Assembly (NCBI GenBank): GCA_944376605.1
Contig: CALWDE010000010.1
Coordinates: 5,287 to 69,286 of the forward strand
Length of the DNA stretch: 64,000 bases
Direction: 5' to 3'
Source: an uncultured Bacilli bacterium
Lineage (GTDB): Bacteria; Bacillota_I; Bacilli_A; RFN20; CAG-826
A program made the position numbers and the translations under genes. Each line of letters opens with the position of its first letter. The first letter of the stretch is position 1. Below, one piece after another: positions 510 to 13,730 of the stretch. The notes below the pieces were generated by a model, which was not told the origin of the DNA, did no database searches, and saw only the letters and a list, made by a program, of their open reading frames with translations.

Positions 510-584
510 TGGTGGAGCATAGGGGTCTCGAACCCCCGACCCCCTGCTTGCAAAGCAGGTGCTCTACCGCTGAGCTAATGCCCC
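510..584 (-). tRNA. tRNA-Ala (UGC)
   Basis: The minus-strand sequence runs GGGGCAT...ATGCTCC-A-CCA. It has the G3:U70 identity pair, anticodon stem-loop CCTGC-TTTGCAA-GCAGG, T-loop TTCGAGA and an encoded CCA. Confidence 0.9.
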
Positions 585-2633: not shown

Positions 2634-3149
2634 TTACAAGCGAAGACGTTCAAAAATGCCACTAGCGATAATGCGGTCAGCAAAAAAGCCTACCGCAAGA
2701 CCTGTGAATAATCCAACAAGTGCCATCAAAGGGAAATACCAAAACACCCCTGATGTAGAAAGAAGGATGGAAGCAATAGCAATTTGTCCTAAGCAGTGAA
2801 GGACGCTGCCAAAAAGCGAAGCCCCGTAAATAGAAAAGACTTTAGAAAAGCATTTTGCAATAAGAAGCATTCCTAAATACGACAAAATGCCTCCTGCTAA
2901 AGACATATAAAAAGGAAGAGAGAAGATTTTGCCTGTCATCAAAGAGGCAAGAAAAATCCTTCCAATATCAATAAGAAGCGCTTCACTCCACGAGAAACGG
3001 TAAATTAAAACTAAGATGATAATATTGGCTAAACCTGGCTTAAATCCAGGAAGAGAAGAAATAGGAATAAAACTCTCCGCAACAGATAAGGCAAGAGCAA
3101 GTGCTAACATGGTCGCATCGAGAGCGATTCTTCTTACAGAGGACTTCAT
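2634..3149 (-). CDS. Gx transporter family membrane protein (heptaprenyl-diphosphate-synthase-component-I-like)
   Basis: A 171 aa polytopic membrane protein that lies immediately after a NusG-II protein and ApbE, a gene trio I recognise as recurrent. It overlaps the upstream gene (3146-3149). Confidence 0.6.
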   Translation of the reverse strand: MKSSVRRIALDATMLALALALSVAESFIPISSLPGFKPGLANIIILVLIYRFSWSEALLIDIGRIFLASLMTGKIFSLPFYMSLAGGILSYLGMLLIAKCFSKVFSIYGASLFGSVLHCLGQIAIASILLSTSGVFWYFPLMALVGLFTGLAVGFFADRIIASGIFERLRL

Positions 3150-3628
3150 ACGATAATATCAACTCCTGAAGAAGAGGAACTTGGAGGAAGAGAAGCAATT
3201 TCTCCTACATATTCCACATGAACATGGTTATAAGCACAGACAATTGGTTTTCTGGGGTCAAGGGTGTAGCCAAGTGAAACGCAGTATTGAGAAGGGCAAC
3301 CAGAAGATAGCACAGCAATACCCTCTTGGCTTATCGCGAAAACCATAGGGGTTAAAGCGCCTTCAATTTCATATGCCGCTTCTACCTCTTCTCCATATAA
3401 GGAGGGATCTAATTCTTTTACTCTTTCTTCTTCATAAATCACCGATTCTTGAGGAGAAGAAAGATTCAAATAAAGAAGACACACATCATCGCAAAAGATA
3501 TTCGCCCCGCTTGCGCTAGAAGTAGGTGCTAATAGAAGAAAGATAGTTCCTAAAGTTGTCGCGAAAAGTAAAACAAAAAAGAGAATGATATCTCCTAAGT
3601 GTTTTTGCAAAAAGGCTTTCGCTTTCAT
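3146..3628 (-). CDS. NusG domain II-containing membrane-anchored protein
   Basis: It has an N-terminal TM helix and the C-terminal pattern SSGCPSQYCV...PIVCAYNHVHVE, typical of NusG_II-domain proteins. Confidence 0.6.
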   Translation of the reverse strand: MKAKAFLQKHLGDIILFFVLLFATTLGTIFLLLAPTSSASGANIFCDDVCLLYLNLSSPQESVIYEEERVKELDPSLYGEEVEAAYEIEGALTPMVFAISQEGIAVLSSGCPSQYCVSLGYTLDPRKPIVCAYNHVHVEYVGEIASLPPSSSSSGVDIIV

Positions 3629-3631
3629 TCT

Positions 3632-4723
3632 CTACTCTTCCGTAATAGGAAAATCCTCACTTAAATAAACAGAGGGATCACTTCTTCGATTATCGTAAAA
3701 GAAGAAAGAGTAGCCCATCTCTTCAAAGGCAGAAACATCTGCACTTTCTCCAAGCATTAAAAAATATGTCGATAACACGTCACAAATTGCAGCGTTTTCT
3801 CCTAATACAATCGCGGTGGTAAGCGCTGGAACGGCATTACCCGTCTTAGGGTTTACCACATGGCTATATAAAGTATTTGCAGATACATCAAAATAATGCT
3901 GATTGGTAACAGAAGAGGTACCGATTGCTTCATTTTTTACCTTAAATTTCATGCCTTCCACATCGGATACTCCTACGGTGAAAGTGCGATCTTCTGCGTA
4001 AGGATTCTCACCAACAAGAATCGAGCTGCTTCCTGCGTTAATTAAATAATAGGTAAGCTGATTATCCTCGCAAATCTCCTTTAAGCGCATCAAAGCGTAC
4101 CCTTTGCCAATCGCGCCAAAGTCTAATAAAGCGCTGCCCTCTTTTGTTGCGTAATATTTCCCATTTTTTTCTTCTAAAGTTAGAGAACTTTCTTGCATCT
4201 CTAAGATAGAAGAAGAGATTTCTTCCTCAGTTGGACGAGAAAAAGTCTCCCCGTCTTTTGGGAAAGAATCTTTCCATAACCAGTTTAAATTACCCGATAA
4301 AATATCAATGTAACCATCTGTCATCTCTTCTGCTTCTAGGGCAAAAGATAAGATGTCGTAAAAGGCTTTATCAATCTCAAAAGTGCCCTCTTTTTCACTC
4401 AGCGTTTTAGCATTTACCTGAATCCCTCCATAAGAAAGATTGGTGTCCATATAACGCGAACCAAGAGCAAAATCACTGGTAATCTCGTCATAAACATCAC
4501 TTGGAGCAACTTCCCCTTCTTCCCGCAAAAACTGAAAGCTTGTCGTCACCGCGTATGAGTAATAGTCATGCGCCGTGCTAACCACATATTTTTTTGCTTC
4601 ACTAGAAGAGAGAGAACTGGAAGAGCTTCCCTCGCACGAAGCGAGGACGAGAAGAGAGAAAAGCAGAAGAGAAAAGGATTTTTTCATACGCGCCATTCTA
4701 GTAAGAAAAAGGAGGCTCTTCAA
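3632..4723 (-). CDS. apbE: FAD:protein FMN transferase (ApbE family) lipoprotein
   Basis: It carries the ApbE signature DFGAIGKGYA and the lipoprotein signal ...LLLFSLLVLASC. The start is ambiguous: TTG at 4723, or ATG at 4696 or 4687. Confidence 0.8.
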   Translation of the reverse strand: MKSLLFLTRMARMKKSFSLLLFSLLVLASCEGSSSSSLSSSEAKKYVVSTAHDYYSYAVTTSFQFLREEGEVAPSDVYDEITSDFALGSRYMDTNLSYGGIQVNAKTLSEKEGTFEIDKAFYDILSFALEAEEMTDGYIDILSGNLNWLWKDSFPKDGETFSRPTEEEISSSILEMQESSLTLEEKNGKYYATKEGSALLDFGAIGKGYALMRLKEICEDNQLTYYLINAGSSSILVGENPYAEDRTFTVGVSDVEGMKFKVKNEAIGTSSVTNQHYFDVSANTLYSHVVNPKTGNAVPALTTAIVLGENAAICDVLSTYFLMLGESADVSAFEEMGYSFFFYDNRRSDPSVYLSEDFPITEE

Positions 4724-4736
4724 TGCCTCCTATTTG

Positions 4737-5102
4737 TTATTTCTTTTCTTCTTCCTCCTTTTCCTCGTCCTCATAGACAGGATCAGGATGGGAAGAGAGA
4801 TAACTCATGATGGGGTCAAAGTTCGCTTCCTTTTTTCCAGGACGGCAAATCTTGATATCCGCAATTTCTCCCTTCACAAGTTTTTCTGCCATTTCATGGC
4901 ATCCAGCGTTGCCGCATGCACCGCAATTATATCCAGGCAAGAGTTTTTCTACCTCTTCTACTCTTTTATCTTCTCTTACCTTAAAGATGGCATAAAAGAT
5001 ACAGAGTAAAACAGCAAAAATCGCACCAAGTCCAATTAGAAGAAGAACAGCATACAAGATTGCCATTCCGTTTTCGAAACTGACCATTAATGGAATATTC
5101 AT
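4737..5102 (-). CDS. rnfB: truncated RnfB: TM helix plus B-type 4Fe-4S domain only
   Basis: LLPGYNCGACGNAGCHEMAEKLVKGE...ICRPG matches the RnfB N-terminal Cys cluster. No CxxCxxCxxxCP ferredoxin motifs follow, and the protein ends in the acidic tail EDEEKEEEEKK. Confidence 0.7.
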   Translation of the reverse strand: MNIPLMVSFENGMAILYAVLLLIGLGAIFAVLLCIFYAIFKVREDKRVEEVEKLLPGYNCGACGNAGCHEMAEKLVKGEIADIKICRPGKKEANFDPIMSYLSSHPDPVYEDEEKEEEEKK

Positions 5103-5919: not shown

Positions 5920-6639
5920 TTATTTCCCTCCTTCAGCGGCGGCTTTTTTAGCGTTAAGCGCATCCACTTTTGCTTTATTTTTCTTGTAAGAAGAAGCGGC
6001 AGCAATAATCGCAAGGGCAATGCCAAGTACTAAGAATCCGCCAAGTGAACGCTGGAAGAATTCGATTGAGTAATCATAGACTCCTTCGAGTTTTAAAATA
6101 GGTAAAGAATATTCTGGAATAAAGGTGAACACTCTTCCAAAAGTAATCATTCCTGTTCCTAAAATTTCACGAACAAGAGCGATAGCGCAAATAGCCCATG
6201 TAAAGCCAATTCCGTTTCCAAGTGCATCTAAAGTGCTATTTAAAACGGTATTTTTGGAAGCGTAAGCTTCGCTTCTACCAAGAACAATACAGTTGACCAC
6301 AAGAAGAGATAAGAACACTCCTAACGAGGTATATAGTTCCGGTAAAAATGCTTCACAAATCATCTTCACTACCGTAACAAAGGTCGCAATGATGACGATG
6401 TAGCAAGGAGTCGTGACTTCTTCTGGAATAATCTTCCGAAGAAGCGAAACAAAGATATTGGAACCAAGAAGAACAAAAGTGAACAAAATGCCCATGCCAA
6501 TTGCAGATTCAAAATTAGTGGTTACCGCTAAAGCAGGACACATTCCCAGTAAGGAAACGAACAAAGGATTCGCTTTCCAAATACCGGAAACGAAGGCTTC
6601 TTTTCTTTCTTCTCTTAGACTAAGAGCCGTTTCTCCCAT
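5920..6639 (-). CDS. rnfE: Rnf complex subunit E
   Basis: GIWKANPLFVSLLGMCPALAVT and LVVNCIVLGR are typical RnfE/NqrD motifs. Confidence 0.9.
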   Translation of the reverse strand: MGETALSLREERKEAFVSGIWKANPLFVSLLGMCPALAVTTNFESAIGMGILFTFVLLGSNIFVSLLRKIIPEEVTTPCYIVIIATFVTVVKMICEAFLPELYTSLGVFLSLLVVNCIVLGRSEAYASKNTVLNSTLDALGNGIGFTWAICAIALVREILGTGMITFGRVFTFIPEYSLPILKLEGVYDYSIEFFQRSLGGFLVLGIALAIIAAASSYKKNKAKVDALNAKKAAAEGGK

Positions 6640-6658: not shown

Positions 6659-9600
6659 TTAGGCGATTGCAAGATAGGCATTGAAGCATTGGTCATAAAT
6701 GGCAGTAGCAACAGCATAATAAGTTTCATCACCAGTTAAGTTACTTCCCCCAAAAAGAGTTTCAATGCTACTCGCCCAAGTCTTTAAATCTTCAAAGTTC
6801 GTATACCCATCTGTATTAGCAATCTTTAAGCCGCGAATGCTATAGGCATCATCTGCAAAGGCTAAAGCGCATTCGAAAGTATGAGACTCTACTGTAACAT
6901 TGAAGGTAACAATTTGAGCAAAAGGTTCTCCTAAAAGAAGTACATCATAAGAAGTGAAGGTGTCGTCAATAGTTGTTGCTGCACCAATGCTAGAACCAGA
7001 GGCGTAAGTGCCATCTTCGATAAATTCATTGACGATATCAGGAATAGAGGTGCTTGGTGCATCTGGATCAAAGTTAGAAGCTTCGTTCATGGCAGTTTTA
7101 AGAGAAGCTACCACATCAGAAATATCCGCACCTGCTACAGGCTCTTCCCTATTGTTATAAGAGCTTGCCCAATCAAGGAGAGCAGAAATATGTTCATATT
7201 CTCCCCAGCTGCTGATATAGATGCTTGTAAAGTCTGCATTATCAACAGCGACATAGAAAGAAATCGTTTCAGAACCCGCTAAAATCGAACCAGTGAACAT
7301 TCTTCCCTGGCTTCCTTCATAGGTAACATCGTAGTATTCGGTGAAAATAGAAGAACCATCGATGCTTGTTGCACTTTCATAGTAGCAGCTTGGCGTGAAG
7401 GCTTCATTCATCGCTTCTTCTAATGTGTAGCCATCTGCAGGATTTGGTTCTACTGGTTCATCAGGTTCATCGGTAGGAAGAGTTCCTTTGTAGTACTCCA
7501 CTAAAGCAGTAGAGATACGGTTTACAGTTTCTTCATTTCTTGTTCCAGTCTCTGAAACAACATCCACCGCGCTAACAACATCGCTCACCTCGTCAGTAAC
7601 TAAATCACCAACCGAGATAAGAAGTGTTGCGCTATAAGAATCCTCTTTGATGTTTGCAACATAAACATTGCCGGGATAAGTAGGAGTTCCGCCTAATGGA
7701 TCACTAGAAGGAACATAAACGCTGTAATAAGTCTTTCCTACTTCTGGAGTACCTGCTAAAGTGAAGTTTCCACCCATCGTATCATACTTAGCATTTTCAC
7801 CAAAGTTCTTCGTGACTACTTCGCCAATCTTAGCGGAAATATCTTCTTCCACATTCACGCCATAGTCTCTTTGGGCATCTTCAATCGCGCCGATTAAACT
7901 ATTAATTTCGCTAGCAGCAGCGTTTTCGCTATCAGGAGCAGTAAGTGTCTTGCTGCTATTTGTGCTGCTAATCCACTCATTTAAGGCGGTTAAAGCAGTA
8001 TCTGTTAAAGCAGTAGAAATAAGCTTCACTTCTACAAAAGAGGCATCCGCATTTAAAGCGACGTAGAAAGTGTTATCGGCAGCAGTTTCTAAACGTACTG
8101 CATAAACTCTACCAATCTCTTCGCCTTCTGCATCATAAGCACTGTAATAGGCATAAGCGTACCAAACATTGCTAATAGAGACTTTCTCGCTCCAGCTAGA
8201 AGCAGCAGGAAGCATAGTAGTAACCTCTTCTGGCGCGGTTAAATCAGGATTTTCAGTTGGATCAGTAATTCCCGCAATTTCTTTTACCTCATCTAGCATA
8301 GCAGCAATCGAATAAGCAGCTTGCTCGCACCCAGAAGTAGCAATATCATCGCGATAATCTACTGTGCCATTATTAATCTTTTCTATCCATCCTTTGACGC
8401 CTGTTACATAAGCAGCGTCATAGGAAGAGGTGTAATAACCAACTTTGATGTTCTTATCAGCATCAACTGAAACAAGAATACCTAAGCTATCACCAGATTG
8501 TTCATAAGTAGCTTGATAGACTGTTGCAAGCGTATCGCCATTATCATCAAGAGCTAAACGAGTAGTTTTAACAAAGTCATGACCTTCCACGCTTTGCACA
8601 TCTCCCCAGATAGCATCAGGAAGTAATGCGTCATAAGCAGCTTGCTCTTCCTCTGTTAATTCACCGCTTGAAGAGCCACCATTTTGATAATCGGAAATAG
8701 CCTCCGTTACAATGCTTTGAATGGTCGCATAAGAAGCACCTGCGCTAGGCGCCGTCTCAAAATTAGAAGGATCTTCATTAACAGAATCCACCCAGTCTTT
8801 AATCGTGTCTTCTGTTTCTGCTGGATTGCCACCAGAATAATCTTCAAGCAACATGCCCGTAACGGCGTAATTCGTATCAAGACCAACTAAGATTTCAATA
8901 TGGACACCAAAATTATTAGTACCTGCACCAAGATATGCTCTGCCTAAGAGAGTATTGGCAGAATCATAAACTTCGCGGTAAGAGGTAATGTAATCCCCGG
9001 TAACAGTAACCTCATTTCCAGTGGATGCGGCGCCTTCAAATAAATCAAGATATTTTTGATTTTCACTAGAAGAACCACCATCTTGATAATCGGAAATGGC
9101 CTCCGTTACAATGCTTTGAATGGTCGCGTAAGAAGCACCTGCGCTAGGAGCAGTATCAAAGTTAGAGGGATCTTCGTTCACAGAATCTACCCAGTCTTTA
9201 ATGGTATCTTCTGTTTCTGCTGGAGTGCCGCCAGAATAGTCTTCTAATGACATACCAGTAACCGCATAATTAGTATCAAGACCAACTAAGATTTCGATAT
9301 GGACACCAAAACCGTTAGTGCCCGCACCAAGATAACCTCTACCAAGTAAAGCGTTATTTGCACCATACACCTCGCGATAAGAGGTGAGATAAGTGCCAGA
9401 TAGAGTCACTTCATCTCCAACCGATGTAGCGCCTTCAAATAGATCGAGATATTTTTGAGCGCCATCAGGGAGTGGAGTAGAACCGCCTCCTTCATAAGAG
9501 GCTAAAGCTTCGGCAATCATTTCACGAATCACACCAGCTGAGTTAGAAGCGCCAGTGGTGACTCCATTTTCTAAATTCGCAGGATCTTCGTTAATCGAGT

Positions 9601-10015
9601 CAATCCATCCTTCGATAACATTGGTAGTGCCGCCTGTGTTATCTGGTCCATAAGAGACAAGATTCACATGAACAAGACCTTCCTCATTAACACCGACAAT
9701 TAAGTTAATTGGTGCGCCAAAGCCAGAAGTACCCGTTACCACATAGCCCTTACCAATTTCGTTACCACTTGCATCAAGCGCGCTGCGGTAACCAGTAACA
9801 TATGTCTTTCCTGTTACTTCTACTAAATCACTAAAACTAGCGGCATCAGGGAAGCATTCCCGGAAAGCTGCTGTTTCTTTATCTTGACTATGACTAGAAA
9901 TAATACCTTCTGTAAAAGCGTTCACTGTACCAATAATGGCACCAGCTCCACCTCCCACTAAAGCAAGAACCGCTACAACACTTAAAACGTGTTTCCAATC
10001 AATTTTTAGTTTCAT
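6659..10015 (-). CDS. rnfG: giant RnfG-like subunit: N-terminal TM anchor plus about 8 tandem FMN_bind-like modules (1118 aa)
   Basis: It lies in the rnfG slot between rnfD and rnfE. The ATG at 10015 overlaps the rnfD TGA as ATGA; the track ORF extends to 10123 inside rnfD. It has the TM helix HVLSVVAVLALVGGGAGAIIG and repeated ~130 aa modules. Three of them carry [ST/A]GA[ST]-type motifs (TTGASNS, SAGASYAT twice). Confidence 0.75.
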   Translation of the reverse strand: MKLKIDWKHVLSVVAVLALVGGGAGAIIGTVNAFTEGIISSHSQDKETAAFRECFPDAASFSDLVEVTGKTYVTGYRSALDASGNEIGKGYVVTGTSGFGAPINLIVGVNEEGLVHVNLVSYGPDNTGGTTNVIEGWIDSINEDPANLENGVTTGASNSAGVIREMIAEALASYEGGGSTPLPDGAQKYLDLFEGATSVGDEVTLSGTYLTSYREVYGANNALLGRGYLGAGTNGFGVHIEILVGLDTNYAVTGMSLEDYSGGTPAETEDTIKDWVDSVNEDPSNFDTAPSAGASYATIQSIVTEAISDYQDGGSSSENQKYLDLFEGAASTGNEVTVTGDYITSYREVYDSANTLLGRAYLGAGTNNFGVHIEILVGLDTNYAVTGMLLEDYSGGNPAETEDTIKDWVDSVNEDPSNFETAPSAGASYATIQSIVTEAISDYQNGGSSSGELTEEEQAAYDALLPDAIWGDVQSVEGHDFVKTTRLALDDNGDTLATVYQATYEQSGDSLGILVSVDADKNIKVGYYTSSYDAAYVTGVKGWIEKINNGTVDYRDDIATSGCEQAAYSIAAMLDEVKEIAGITDPTENPDLTAPEEVTTMLPAASSWSEKVSISNVWYAYAYYSAYDAEGEEIGRVYAVRLETAADNTFYVALNADASFVEVKLISTALTDTALTALNEWISSTNSSKTLTAPDSENAAASEINSLIGAIEDAQRDYGVNVEEDISAKIGEVVTKNFGENAKYDTMGGNFTLAGTPEVGKTYYSVYVPSSDPLGGTPTYPGNVYVANIKEDSYSATLLISVGDLVTDEVSDVVSAVDVVSETGTRNEETVNRISTALVEYYKGTLPTDEPDEPVEPNPADGYTLEEAMNEAFTPSCYYESATSIDGSSIFTEYYDVTYEGSQGRMFTGSILAGSETISFYVAVDNADFTSIYISSWGEYEHISALLDWASSYNNREEPVAGADISDVVASLKTAMNEASNFDPDAPSTSIPDIVNEFIEDGTYASGSSIGAATTIDDTFTSYDVLLLGEPFAQIVTFNVTVESHTFECALAFADDAYSIRGLKIANTDGYTNFEDLKTWASSIETLFGGSNLTGDETYYAVATAIYDQCFNAYLAIA
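8660..9457 (-). repeat. 2 x 399 bp in-frame tandem duplication inside rnfG (modules 2 and 3)
   Basis: The string ttgataatcggaaat(a/g)gcctccgttacaatgctttgaatggtcgc recurs at 8684 and 9083, a 399 bp period. The encoded 133 aa units, both starting QKYLDLFEGA, differ at about 19 positions by manual alignment. Confidence 0.9.
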
Positions 10016-11160
10016 GAGATTTTTCCTCCATAATAGATCCCTAAAAGTAGGACCAAAATAACTGCAAAGATAATGCCTCCTACAAGGAGTGCTTTTTTCC
10101 AAGTCCAGCGAGAACTTGCCCATTTGGGATAATCAAGCGCCGGAGTAAGAAGGTTAGCAAGAAGAATCGAATAACCAACTCCCTCTGGACTGCTTGAGAA
10201 TAAACGAATAATGACAGTTAAACAGCCCGCGATTAAAGCGTACATATAACGGCCAGGTTTCGTTACGGGAGAAGTAACAGGATCAGTTAGCATAAAGGTC
10301 GCACCAAACAGCATCCCGCCCGATAAAAATTCAAAGCCAATAAAGTGCCAAGCATTGAAATTATCCACAAGACCGCTTGATGCAATCGCAATGGACGCAA
10401 TCGCCATCAAAGCGGTAAACGTCCCAATGTAGGTGAAGGTGATTCGCCAGTCAATCGCTTGACGAAGAAGTAAATAAAGTAAGCCAACAAGGATAAGCAC
10501 CTTGCAAACTTCACCCATCGCTCCTTGCGTTTTTCCAAGGAATAAATCAAGAAGAGAAATATCCGCAATAGAGGAATATCCTCCGCTAGAGATTCCGCTT
10601 AGCACTGTGCCGCCTGTTGTGATATCAATAATAGGCGAAGTGCCTTCTGTCCAGTAAATGGGCGAATATGTCATGGAACTGCTGAAAGATAAACGCGTAA
10701 TCAGCATCCCTACTGCCGCAGGGTTAAAAATGTTATGTCCTGTCCCGCCAAAAACCAGTTTAGCAAAGACAATCCCGCATAAGGCACCAATAAAAACGCC
10801 ATACCAAGAAGTAGAAGCTGGAAGACACATCCCGTAAATAAGAGCGCTGACAAGAGGCGCCAAAGCATTTAAGGGAGTGTAACTCTTTATCGCATAAAGG
10901 AACTTCTCTTGGAAAGAATGTTTCATGCCGTCATAGGGCATCTTTCCTTTAATCATAACAAATACCCACTCGGCAAGAAGCATCGTGGGAATAGAAATGC
11001 CAAAGACCTTTAACGCGTCAAGTCGGTAAATAATAAAGGAAAAAATAAGAAGAGGGAGTAAGGCAAGAATGACATCAAGCATCATGATCGAGGCGCTATC
11101 TCTGCGTCTCACGTGAGGACTTGGTTCTTGCAAACTGCGTACTGGATTCATTTCACTCAT
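10012..11160 (-). CDS. rnfD: Rnf complex subunit D
   Basis: A polytopic NqrB/RnfD pattern with a flavinylation-type motif ITTGGTVLSG. It overlaps both rnfC and rnfG. Confidence 0.9.
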   Translation of the reverse strand: MSEMNPVRSLQEPSPHVRRRDSASIMMLDVILALLPLLIFSFIIYRLDALKVFGISIPTMLLAEWVFVMIKGKMPYDGMKHSFQEKFLYAIKSYTPLNALAPLVSALIYGMCLPASTSWYGVFIGALCGIVFAKLVFGGTGHNIFNPAAVGMLITRLSFSSSMTYSPIYWTEGTSPIIDITTGGTVLSGISSGGYSSIADISLLDLFLGKTQGAMGEVCKVLILVGLLYLLLRQAIDWRITFTYIGTFTALMAIASIAIASSGLVDNFNAWHFIGFEFLSGGMLFGATFMLTDPVTSPVTKPGRYMYALIAGCLTVIIRLFSSSPEGVGYSILLANLLTPALDYPKWASSRWTWKKALLVGGIIFAVILVLLLGIYYGGKIS

Positions 11161-12458
11161 AATTTGGCAATCCTTTTGGCCCTCCTTACAAATTCCGTAA
11201 CATTAATGTGACTTGTACAAGCATATGCACATAAGCCGCATTCGACGCAGCGTTCAGGGTGTAATGATTTTACTTTTGCTTTATCCCCTGCTTTTACTGC
11301 ACTAGCAATAAGAACAGGCATTAGATGAGTAGGGCAGCTATAAACGCAAGACCCGCAACGGACGCAAGGATCTGCTTTATAGGGTGCTTCATCTAAAACA
11401 AGAAGAGAGGTTACTGTTGGAGAGCAGATGACATCATCAGAATTTACTGTGTTCCCCATCATAGGACCGCCAAAAATAAGACGTTTCTTCTTACCTGAAT
11501 CGGTATAACCTCCGCATAAAGCGACAAGATCTTGGATAGGGGTACCAATTCTCACTTTGAAGAATTTTGGATTTACCACGCCGTCTCCATGAATTTGCAC
11601 ATATCTTTCTAAAAGAGGAGTGCCATAACGAATGGCAAGATATAAGGAATAAATAGTAGCAACGTTATATTCCAAAACGCCATATTCTGCAGGAAGATGG
11701 CCGCTTTCTACTTCAATGCCAGTCGCACTTTTAATACAAGCAACTTCCCACCCTTGTGGATAAAAGTTATACACTTGGCAATAGGAAACTCCGCTGCCTT
11801 CCTCTCCTGCCAAAGCGCTGCTAAAGGTGGACTCTAAATCTTTATAAATCCACTTTGCACAAATCTTGCCTTCTTTGGCTCCAACCGCCTTCATTAAATA
11901 CTTCACGCCCTCAATAATCTCATGAGGATGTTCGAGCATTAAGCGGTGGTCACTAGCTAAGGAAGGTTCACATTCCACTCCGTTAATCACAATGGTGTGG
12001 ATATCGTGTTCACCTTGCAGTTTGACATAGCTAGGGAAGGAAGATCCTCCAAGTCCAACAAGTGCCATATCTTTCATGATGTTGAGCACATCATCTTTCG
12101 TTAAAGAAGCAATCTCTTCTTCGCTCCTCTCATGGCAAAGGGAGCTTAATTCATCCTGGAAATCATTTTGAATCTTCAAAAAGTCACAGGTTTTGCCCGT
12201 ATGGTGAAGGTGTTTTTCAATGCCAAGATAAGTTCCTGAAACAGTGGAAATAATCGGCTGTTCAAAGAATGGACCTTTCCGCATTCCGAGTTTGTCGCCA
12301 ATCTTGACATGATCCCCTTCTTTGACATCAAGCGTGTAAGAAGCGCATCTTCCATTTGTACCTGCTAAAAATACAAAAAGAGGAAGGGGAGCTTCCTCTA
12401 ACTCCTGATGAGAAAGAAGTACCGCGGGCAGTTCAATATGCCTTGCTTTCGCTATCAT
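11157..12458 (-). CDS. rnfC: Rnf complex subunit C (NADH-binding, 2 x 4Fe-4S)
   Basis: It has GLGGSSFPSYVKL (SLBB/NADH site) and two ferredoxin motifs, CVRCGSCVYSCP and CVECGLCAYACTS. Confidence 0.9.
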   Translation of the reverse strand: MIAKARHIELPAVLLSHQELEEAPLPLFVFLAGTNGRCASYTLDVKEGDHVKIGDKLGMRKGPFFEQPIISTVSGTYLGIEKHLHHTGKTCDFLKIQNDFQDELSSLCHERSEEEIASLTKDDVLNIMKDMALVGLGGSSFPSYVKLQGEHDIHTIVINGVECEPSLASDHRLMLEHPHEIIEGVKYLMKAVGAKEGKICAKWIYKDLESTFSSALAGEEGSGVSYCQVYNFYPQGWEVACIKSATGIEVESGHLPAEYGVLEYNVATIYSLYLAIRYGTPLLERYVQIHGDGVVNPKFFKVRIGTPIQDLVALCGGYTDSGKKKRLIFGGPMMGNTVNSDDVICSPTVTSLLVLDEAPYKADPCVRCGSCVYSCPTHLMPVLIASAVKAGDKAKVKSLHPERCVECGLCAYACTSHINVTEFVRRAKRIAKL

Positions 12459-12551
12459 GTTTTTTACTTCACTTTCCTTTGGAAAGAATAGCGAGGAAAA
12501 GAAGAGGTAGCAAGAGGGGGATACAAAAAAAGGGGCTTTTTACATCGTTTT

Positions 12552-13678
12552 TTATGACAAAAGAAAGAAAACAAGGTTTCCCATTAAAAAGCTAAATAGA
12601 TTCGCGCCAAAAGATAATAAAAAGGTTAGAAGTTTTTCTTTACCGTGAAAAAACTTACTTTGAAAGTAGAAAAATTCCGTAAAAATGACAAGGATCTCAA
12701 GAAAAAAGAGAAAGATCGAAAGATAAATAGGAAAGAGAATTTCAGAAAAAGGAAGATATAACAAATGGAGTGTTACGTTGGTAATTAAGTTAAAAAGAAG
12801 TAACTGGGATATAAATTTTTTACTGCGAAAGAGGGAAGCAAATGGTAAATAAAAAATATCTCAAAGCCTTCTATTAAAAGAAGAGAAGTTCCTATAAGAG
12901 GGAAAGCGCCAAAATGATCCACTAATATTCCCCCCAATTAGTTTTCCTAAAAAGATTCCTATTGAGGTATAAAGGAAAGCGTAAGCTACACTCTCTCCGC
13001 TATTATAACTCCCTATCAAACCTCGCAAGAAGATAGAAAGAGCAAGAAGTAACAAAAGAAGCGCGCCTTCTTTGAAAGAAGGCATCACTGAAATCCCTGC
13101 AATATCCTTTCTTTTTATTTGATTTTGCATCCAGTAGTAAAAAAGAATAGGGAAAGCAATTGCGCAGATGAATTAGAAAAAGAAATATAAAATTAGATTT
13201 ACTAAAAGGACAAATTCGTTGCGGATAAGATCAGAAGAAGTCAATGCCACCGCAATCGCGCCAAAAGAAATAAAGACGCCTAGTTCCCCTGCGCTTGCCT
13301 TCTCCTCCATCAGTCTTCTGCCAACTGTAACATGGAATAAGCAGTTCCCTATTCCAGCTAAAGGAAGCGAAAGACCAAGTGTTAAAGGAATGGTATAAGC
13401 ATTCAAAAAGAAAATAGGAAGGATACCAATTAGGATAAGAAGAGGAGATAAACAAAAAGATAAGGGTCGAGTTTACCGTTTGTGTGATCTAGCAATAATC
13501 CAACTGGACCTTGAAGCAAAAAGGCAAAAACAATGTAAATCGATAAGGCAAGAAAAGGAATGTAATTATTCTCGTCAAAAAAGCCATTACCTGCCCAGGT
13601 TGCTCAATAAAAAATCATTAGAGAAAGAAAATCGATACCAAAGTGAAGAATACCAAACCCTAATGCTTTTTTTATAAC
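12552..13678 (-). pseudogene. disrupted polytopic (MFS-like) transporter gene
   Basis: Hand translation joins hydrophobic segments across five disruptions: an in-frame TGA (13604-13606), a TAA plus frameshift (about 13430), an in-frame TAA (13173-13175), a frameshift at a C6/G6 run (12930-12935), and a further stop plus shift near 12790. There is no ATG at the 5' end. Two G-x-L-(L/V)-D-H-x-x-G loops suggest MFS-type internal symmetry. Confidence 0.6.
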
Positions 13679-13690
13679 TTAACTATATAT

Positions 13691-13716
13691 CAAAAAAGGG
13701 AGACACGAAGTCTCCC
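13691..13716 (-). terminator. rho-independent terminator after the LacI-family gene
   Basis: On the minus strand, GGGAGAC-ttcgt-GTCTCCC (7 bp stem) is followed by TTTTTT. Confidence 0.65.
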
Positions 13717-13730
13717 CTGCCCCTTTTCTT

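Follow-up and report, generated by a model that had tools for sequence, protein, structure and literature searches.

The window analysed here is a 64,000-nucleotide (nt) stretch of contig CALWDE010000010.1 from an uncultured Bacilli bacterium (assembly GCA_944376605.1). It carries an rnf operon in the order rnfC-D-long rnfG-E-A-small open reading frame (ORF)-short rnfB-apbE, and the product of the rnfG gene is 1118 amino acids (aa) long. The gene lies between rnfD and rnfE, as expected of RnfG, and the synteny is alike in the related loci L001-L008. Related loci were found by an alignment-based scan of genome contigs, a query with a single protein having given none. Sequence comparisons identify the predicted product as subunit RnfG of an Rnf complex of Bacilli type, a membrane-anchored protein whose extracytoplasmic flavin mononucleotide (FMN)-binding domain appears to have been multiplied in tandem. 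The operon contains the following genes:

11157..12458, minus strand: rnfC, 433 aa; Pfam matches to NADH/FMN-binding Complex1_51K, SLBB and 2x[4Fe-4S]
10012..11160, minus strand: rnfD, 382 aa; Pfam PF03116, 262 bits; flavin-site motif D-I-T-T-G-G-T
6659..10015, minus strand: long rnfG, 1118 aa; TIGR01947 match over residues 16-122; Foldseek matches to RnfG chains
5920..6639, minus strand: rnfE, 239 aa; Pfam PF02508
5333..5917, minus strand: rnfA, 194 aa; Pfam PF02508
5099..5329, minus strand: 76-aa ORF with a transmembrane (TM) helix and four Cys (C-x10-C-x2-C-x4-C); ATGA-coupled to rnfB
4737..5102, minus strand: short rnfB, 121 aa; TM helix and PF04060 Fe-S domain only
3632..4723, minus strand: apbE (FAD:protein FMN transferase); Pfam PF02424, 124 bits; lipoprotein-type signal LLVLASC
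3146-3628, minus strand: NusG_II-domain protein; conserved operon tail
2634-3149, minus strand: Hpre_diP_synt_I-family membrane protein; conserved operon tail

The long rnfG gene (6659..10015, minus strand) encodes 1118 aa plus a stop. As called mechanically, the ORF reaches 10123; position 10015 was preferred for the start since the ATG there overlaps the TGA stop of rnfD as ATGA. The initial annotation of this DNA had placed a membrane-anchored product of this length in the rnfG slot, ATGA-coupled to rnfD, and the ORF, the anchor and the Pfam assignments of the neighbouring genes all agree with it. The anchor HVLSVVAVLALVGGGAGAIIG was confirmed in the N-terminus, which is basic and then runs into a hydrophobic stretch of ~21 residues, with AlphaFold helices at 7-19 and 24-54. 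This pattern is that of a single N-terminal TM anchor, behind which the positive-inside rule predicts an extracytoplasmic domain. Canonical RnfG/NqrC (7ZC6, 8AHX, 9ERI) shares with the long RnfG its position in the operon, the TM anchor, the fold of M1 and a T-G-A-[ST] loop before the last helix. However, the canonical protein has one domain in ~170-210 aa, whereas the long RnfG has eight modules (M1-M8) behind its anchor:

9872..10015, minus strand: N-terminal region, residues 1-48; basic N-terminus, one TM helix, juxtamembrane helix
9461..9871, minus strand: M1, residues 49-185; RnfG FMN_bind domain proper; T-G-A-S, predicted FMN acceptor S157
9062..9460, minus strand: M2, residues 186-318; FMN_bind-like; A-G-A-S, candidate acceptor S295
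8663..9061, minus strand: M3, residues 319-451; recent M2 duplicate; A-G-A-S, candidate acceptor S428
8231..8662, minus strand: M4, residues 452-595; FMN_bind-like; Glu at the acceptor position (S-G-C-E), no correctly placed acceptor
7847..8230, minus strand: M5, residues 596-723; FMN_bind-like; motif degenerated to N-A-A-A(S), no correctly placed acceptor
7436..7846, minus strand: M6, residues 724-860; helix, five strands, helix; FMN_bind homology not demonstrable; T-G-T-R, no correctly placed acceptor
7049..7435, minus strand: M7, residues 861-989; divergent FMN_bind-like, strain-specific; AlphaFold predicted local distance difference test (pLDDT) 82-94; relic motif A-G-A-D, no correctly placed acceptor
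6662..7048, minus strand: M8, residues 990-1118; strain-specific; similar size and predicted secondary structure, without significant repeat similarity; T-G-D-E, no correctly placed acceptor
8670..9458, no strand assigned: 399-nt tandem duplication in two copies, the basis of M2/M3; 82-84% in DNA self-comparison

Self-BLAST links M1, M2 and M3 to one another, and M4 and M5 weakly. M2 and M3 share 87% amino-acid identity. A hidden Markov model (HMM) seeded on M1-M3 recovers M1-M5 and M7 here, and 5-7 modules in every member of the family. When shuffled sequences were scored against the family HMM, the score of M7 was reached by 1 of 2000 shuffles, that of M6 by 103/2000 and that of M8 by 387/2000. 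Taken together, these comparisons place the repetition far beyond chance for six predicted modules (M1-M5 and M7). M6 lacks the W-x-x-S-x-N helix and is the conserved C-terminal module of the family (homologues P0002-P0004).

An AlphaFold model of the long RnfG, built from a seven-sequence family alignment, has a pLDDT of 70-90 in M1-M6 and a predicted template modelling (pTM) score of 0.26. Its low-pLDDT linkers (177-184, 313-317, 447-452, 584-592, 720-725 and 846 onwards) coincide with the module boundaries that the initial annotation had cut by hand. The model shows the chain as eight modules of ~130 residues on short flexible linkers, like beads on a string. A second run on M7-M8 gave a pLDDT of 82-94 in M7 and 53-77 in M8, with strands followed by two helices in both, using as its alignment module pairs, which presupposes its answer. 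The ectodomain chain is very acidic (isoelectric point 4.05).

The homology of the modules was addressed by profiles and by structure. A profile of 24 modules matches the RnfG chain of Clostridium tetanomorphum (7zc6_G) with E 8e-6 (profile 2-129, chain 45-182), and the alignment puts the s-G-A-T column of the family onto the TGAT of RnfG. Foldseek with the full-length model, a fold comparison that had been proposed beforehand, returned 7zc6_G, 8ahx_G and 9eri_G (probability 1.00/0.99/0.99) as its sole confident matches, the remaining rows being mostly low-probability noise. Each module type was also compared by hhalign with 58 single-domain RnfGs retrieved among the representatives, so that M1 cannot carry the signal. 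M1 matches at 99.6% (E 1.3e-24), M2/M3 (type B) at 99.2% (E 1.3e-19), M4 (type D) at 95.7% (E 8.8e-9), M5 (type E) at 97.7% (E 1.6e-12) and M7 at 78% (E 1.7e-5). M6 reaches 1.2% (E 0.043; 0.03-0.08 across comparisons) and M8 gives no signal in this comparison. We therefore read the original count of eight FMN_bind-like modules as six. M1-M5 and M7 are identified as RnfG/FMN_bind homologues by hhalign, the HMM and the shuffles, whilst M6 and M8, without significant similarity, are not demonstrably FMN_bind-like and M8 would be an orphan. A count of at least two FMN_bind domains, one of the marks of multi-flavinylated proteins, is thus obtained for M1-M5 and M7 by profile-profile comparison and not by Pfam.

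Searching 1.84 billion representatives with the profile yielded just 360 matches at E<=1e-3. Single-domain relatives (170-190 aa) occupy the same operon type, for example in L007, and their PF04205 scores run from 68 bits down to no match. Homologues P0003 and P0006 have precomputed PF04205 matches. These relationships place the long RnfG in a divergent RnfG clade. No Ig-like, adhesin or cell-wall-binding Pfam family was found in the long RnfG or its modules at E up to 10. The extra length had been attributed to copies of the RnfG domain and not to adhesin or Ig repeats, and profile, Foldseek and hhalign results concur.

Some other matches were rejected. Pfam sCache_3_3 (residues 596-645, 30 bits summed with no single stretch passing) was set aside as noise, being apparently a false or very distant match to the beta-hairpin shared by the modules. 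This label is also precomputed for several homologues and could mislead automatic annotation. Profile searches of the PDB gave designed TPR/kinesin-light-chain repeats, and a DARPin match for M6, both arising from summed short repeats.

The motif V-T-T-G-A-S of M1 (S157) aligns with the TGAT of RnfG in the loop preceding the last helix. Every motif quoted in the initial annotation is present (GVTTGASNS; PSAGASYAT twice; TSGCEQ, ENAAASE, ETGTRNE, VAGADIS and LTGDETY). The per-module motif columns likewise agree with its statement that the motif is kept in M1-M3 and lost in M4-M8, G-A-S acceptor motifs being retained solely at S157, S295 and S428. In M2 and M3 the A-G-A-S has the G-A-S core with Ala rather than Ser/Thr at position -3. 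Members of the clade conserve x-G-A-T as the core (often C-G-A-T) with a free position -3, hence the A-G-A-S of M2/M3 would be acceptable. A review of ApbE reports that the terminal Ser/Thr of the flavinylation motif is essential, whilst an Asp-to-Ala change has minor effects only and G-to-A or A-to-V substitutions merely halve flavinylation (PMC12052999). A perfect second T-T-G-A-T module occurs in P0005, P0006 and L004. Moreover, outgroup multi-module RnfGs retain G-A-[ST] in 80 of 113 modules. Unlike these relatives, the long RnfG keeps the acceptor site in just three of eight modules, and the loss in the other five is therefore unusual. At most three covalent flavins are predicted, all in membrane-proximal modules. 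The extended external flavin array that had been envisaged is accordingly reduced to three membrane-proximal sites, the five distal modules being without an acceptor Ser/Thr.

We could effectively exclude mis-assembly as the source of the long ORF. The sole DNA-level repeat within the gene is the 399-nt tandem duplication of M2/M3, whose copies, at 82-84% identity, are too diverged for assembly collapse or expansion. In an independently assembled strain, with a gene 96.8% identical at the DNA level, the order of M1-M6 is identical. Four GTDB species representatives (uncultured Firmicutes/Bacilli bacterium) have proteins of 976-1114 aa in the rnfG slot with the same synteny, and cluster members of equal length are found on several independent contigs/assemblies. 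The same architecture and synteny in independent assemblies, from at least four other uncultured Bacilli species, make mis-assembly very unlikely.

The number of modules varies between related genomes. RnfGs encoded in this type of operon have 1, 2, 3, 4, 5-6 or up to ~9 modules, amongst them a 696-aa RnfG with five G-A-T modules (L008) and one of 1543 aa (L006). The allele of the sister strain (L005, 6001-8616; 96.8% DNA identity) encodes 871 aa and has a 741-nt in-frame deletion relative to 6659-10015. This deletion takes out M7 and most of M8, with its junction at a GT microhomology between GAACCAGT and TGCTACTG. M7 is absent in homologue P0001, and a search of 5.8 billion proteins found no relatives of M7-M8. 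Being deleted in a sister strain and without relatives, the distal modules would seem labile and dispensable. We infer that the distal part is dispensable for the core Rnf reaction and that module number shifts fast by duplication and in-frame deletion.

The explanation that in our judgement fits best overall, and which we hold to be fairly probable, is an RnfG with a tandem-amplified FMN domain in which M1 is canonical, M2-M3 are probably flavinylated and M4-M8 are cofactor-free. In the established Rnf structures (7ZC6, 8AHX, 9ERI) the flavin of RnfG lies between that of RnfD and the iron-sulfur cluster of RnfA/E. M1 (T-G-A-S, S157) would have this canonical role: the lipoprotein ApbE encoded in the operon would attach an FMN to it covalently, and this FMN would shuttle electrons from one of the two neighbouring centres to the other. 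M2 and M3 (S295, S428) probably bear up to two more covalent FMNs and could form a short outward side branch, leaking or delivering electrons to soluble or wall-associated acceptors. M4-M8, in which the acceptor residue is lost, are most likely cofactor-free derivatives that may serve on the cell surface as a stalk, a spacer or a scaffold for binding. A fully extended chain of eight such modules (~130 residues each) might reach a few tens of nanometres, as a rough estimate.

Several results weigh against this explanation. The proposed hmmscan of the hand-cut modules was negative: Pfam PF04205 (FMN_bind) matches neither the whole protein nor any module, M1 included. NCBIfam TIGR01947 (rnfG) matches residues 16-122 below threshold, at 31.2 bits with a cut-off of 102. 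Neither hhalign nor the shuffle tests tie M6 and M8 to the domain family, and Foldseek with the M7-M8 model gave nothing significant and did not retrieve RnfG. M2/M3-type orthologous modules elsewhere are often without G-A (PSATYSY, PSAASSY, PTAVASY), which suggests that flavinylation of such modules is not uniformly selected and may be missing here. Finally, the Y-R-D-D-I-x-x-S-G loop of M4 is conserved across the family and is among the best-conserved parts of the protein, which hints at ligand binding rather than a pure spacer. Of these points, the negative hmmscan does not speak against the fold, because single-domain RnfGs of the clade are also missed by PF04205. Similarly, the low TIGR01947 score follows from a difference from canonical RnfG, since the long RnfG is without the ETPGLG-type segment weighted by curated models.

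The unconserved G-A of M2/M3-type modules in other species would fit a protein in which M1 alone is flavinylated, with M2-M8 redox-inert and serving as a spacer, as a coat on the surface or as an array for adhesion or recognition, and with a relic G-A-S in M2/M3. The clear lack of an acceptor in five of eight modules and the very acidic ectodomain fit such a protein, and fast copy-number change with strain-specific orphan modules is typical of surface repeats. However, the G-A-S core, which is the part of the motif that the clade conserves, is complete in M2 and M3, and the terminal hydroxyl alone is strictly required (PMC12052999). Moreover, the perfect second T-T-G-A-T modules of P0005, P0006 and L004, and the G-A-[ST] of the 80/113 outgroup modules, indicate selection for several flavins in this class of protein. 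We therefore regard a single flavin as possible, though unlikely.

More doubtful is a reading that starts from the conserved M4 loop. Here M4-M6 would bind free flavin, quinone or a partner non-covalently via Y-R-D-D-I-x-x-S-G...A-A-Y, and the complex would export NADH electrons outward. M4-M6, which are conserved across species, would then have derived a new function from the FMN_bind fold, and together with the stripped-down RnfB and the 4-Cys mini-subunit this would make the complex mainly an NADH-to-surface exporter rather than a ferredoxin:NAD+ oxidoreductase.

It is improbable, in our view, that all eight modules carry flavin, covalently in M1-M3 and non-covalently in M4-M8, as a relay over tens of nanometres to external acceptors. 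Six modules do descend from a flavin-binding domain, the loop at the M4 motif (Y-R-D-D-I-x-x-S-G...A-A-Y) shows strong conservation, and it has been proposed that multi-flavinylated proteins are analogous to multi-haem cytochromes (PMC8238504). However, the acceptor Ser/Thr is absent in M4-M8, M6 and M8 are not demonstrably of the same fold, and the flexible beads-on-a-string model fixes no flavin-flavin distances. M7-M8, deleted in a near-identical strain and without relatives, are hence not an essential terminal station.

Lastly, mis-assembled repeats, or Ig/adhesin-like repeats unrelated to RnfG, might have been suspected from the tandem duplication and the absence of a Pfam FMN_bind domain, but are highly improbable and effectively refuted by DNA copies just 82-84% identical in an otherwise non-repetitive gene, by the architecture and synteny shared with a conspecific strain and four other species in independent assemblies, and by the lack of Ig/adhesin matches where profile and structure searches indicate RnfG.

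To our knowledge, a multi-module RnfG has never been studied experimentally, and to this extent the claim that the architecture was uncharacterised stands. However, a bioinformatic study of 2021 had already described multi-flavinylated RnfGs from RNF clusters, with a proposed second, outward electron path (Meheust et al. 2021, eLife, PMC8238504), and an AlphaFold survey gave multi-flavinylated proteins a beads-on-a-string shape (mSystems 2024, PMC11334425). Like these, the long RnfG has several FMN_bind-type domains behind one anchor, ApbE alongside and a beads-on-a-string prediction. Unlike them, its domains are too divergent for Pfam FMN_bind, its distal modules are degenerate or orphan and there is no cytochrome domain. 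What appears new is thus that Pfam does not see the clade, that the protein is extremely long and that most of its modules are degenerate.

The tandem layout is also common to Listeria PplA and to SaFMN3 and CbFMN4, which are extracytosolic proteins of 2-4 tandem FMN_bind domains flavinylated by ApbE/FmnB; in the soluble SaFMN3 and CbFMN4, multiple covalent FMNs have been shown experimentally (PMC10339131). These three are lipoproteins or secreted, are encoded outside Rnf operons and are flavinylated in every domain, whereas most modules of the long RnfG are without a site. PplA belongs to an extracellular electron transfer locus (ndh2, eetAB, dmkA), unlike the long RnfG, which is TM-anchored, without a lipobox and part of an Rnf operon. 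The NCBIfam PplA model NF041941 gave no match to the long RnfG.

Flavinylation of M2 and M3, if it takes place, would give this Rnf complex a built-in outward branch, by which uncultured Bacilli of gut or environmental type would have their cytoplasmic NADH/ferredoxin pool directly linked to the cell surface. Given its RnfGs of 1 to ~9 modules in one conserved operon, the graded loss of acceptors and the gain and loss of modules at strain level, the family is a natural series for studying the function of additional FMN domains on RnfG and the decay of a cofactor domain into a scaffold. Moreover, Pfam-based surveys of flavinylated proteins under-count the long-RnfG clade.

Other subunits of the operon also depart from the usual form. 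The short rnfB (4737-5102) is without the 2x[4Fe-4S] ferredoxin-like domain. A short form of 101-121 aa occurs in L001 and L003-L008, and is found clade-wide regardless of RnfG length, which raises the question of how, or whether, the Rnf of this clade talks to ferredoxin. The ORF between rnfA and rnfB is conserved at 65-76 aa (L005 9946-10176, L006 11947-12156, L007 6890-7117, L008 8415-8612). It encodes a single TM helix and, after it, four Cys (P-x-G-C-E...C-x2-C-x4-5-C), matches no Pfam family and may specify an extra metal-binding mini-subunit of the clade's Rnf. In RnfD, the flavinylation site at residues 182-185 is T-G-G-T (D-I-T-T-G-G-T-V-L), as opposed to the usual [ST]-G-A-T, and T/A-G-G-T/S is found at the same position in L001-L007.

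The NusG_II and Hpre_diP_synt_I genes follow apbE in nearly all related operons examined (L005-L007), with only the NusG_II gene in L008. A search of Rfam around the operon gave neither a riboswitch nor another RNA, just two tRNA genes downstream of the operon region (409-482 and 513-584, minus strand). Upstream of rnfC, an AT-rich stretch of 1.27 kb (12459-13730) contains short broken ORFs only, encoding hydrophobic peptides, and matches no known RNA in Rfam. This stretch may represent the remains of a membrane-protein gene, or else a leader region. Compared with the sister strain L005 it has indels, including a segment of ~330 nt that L005 lacks, and in L005 a 182-aa gene is called there.

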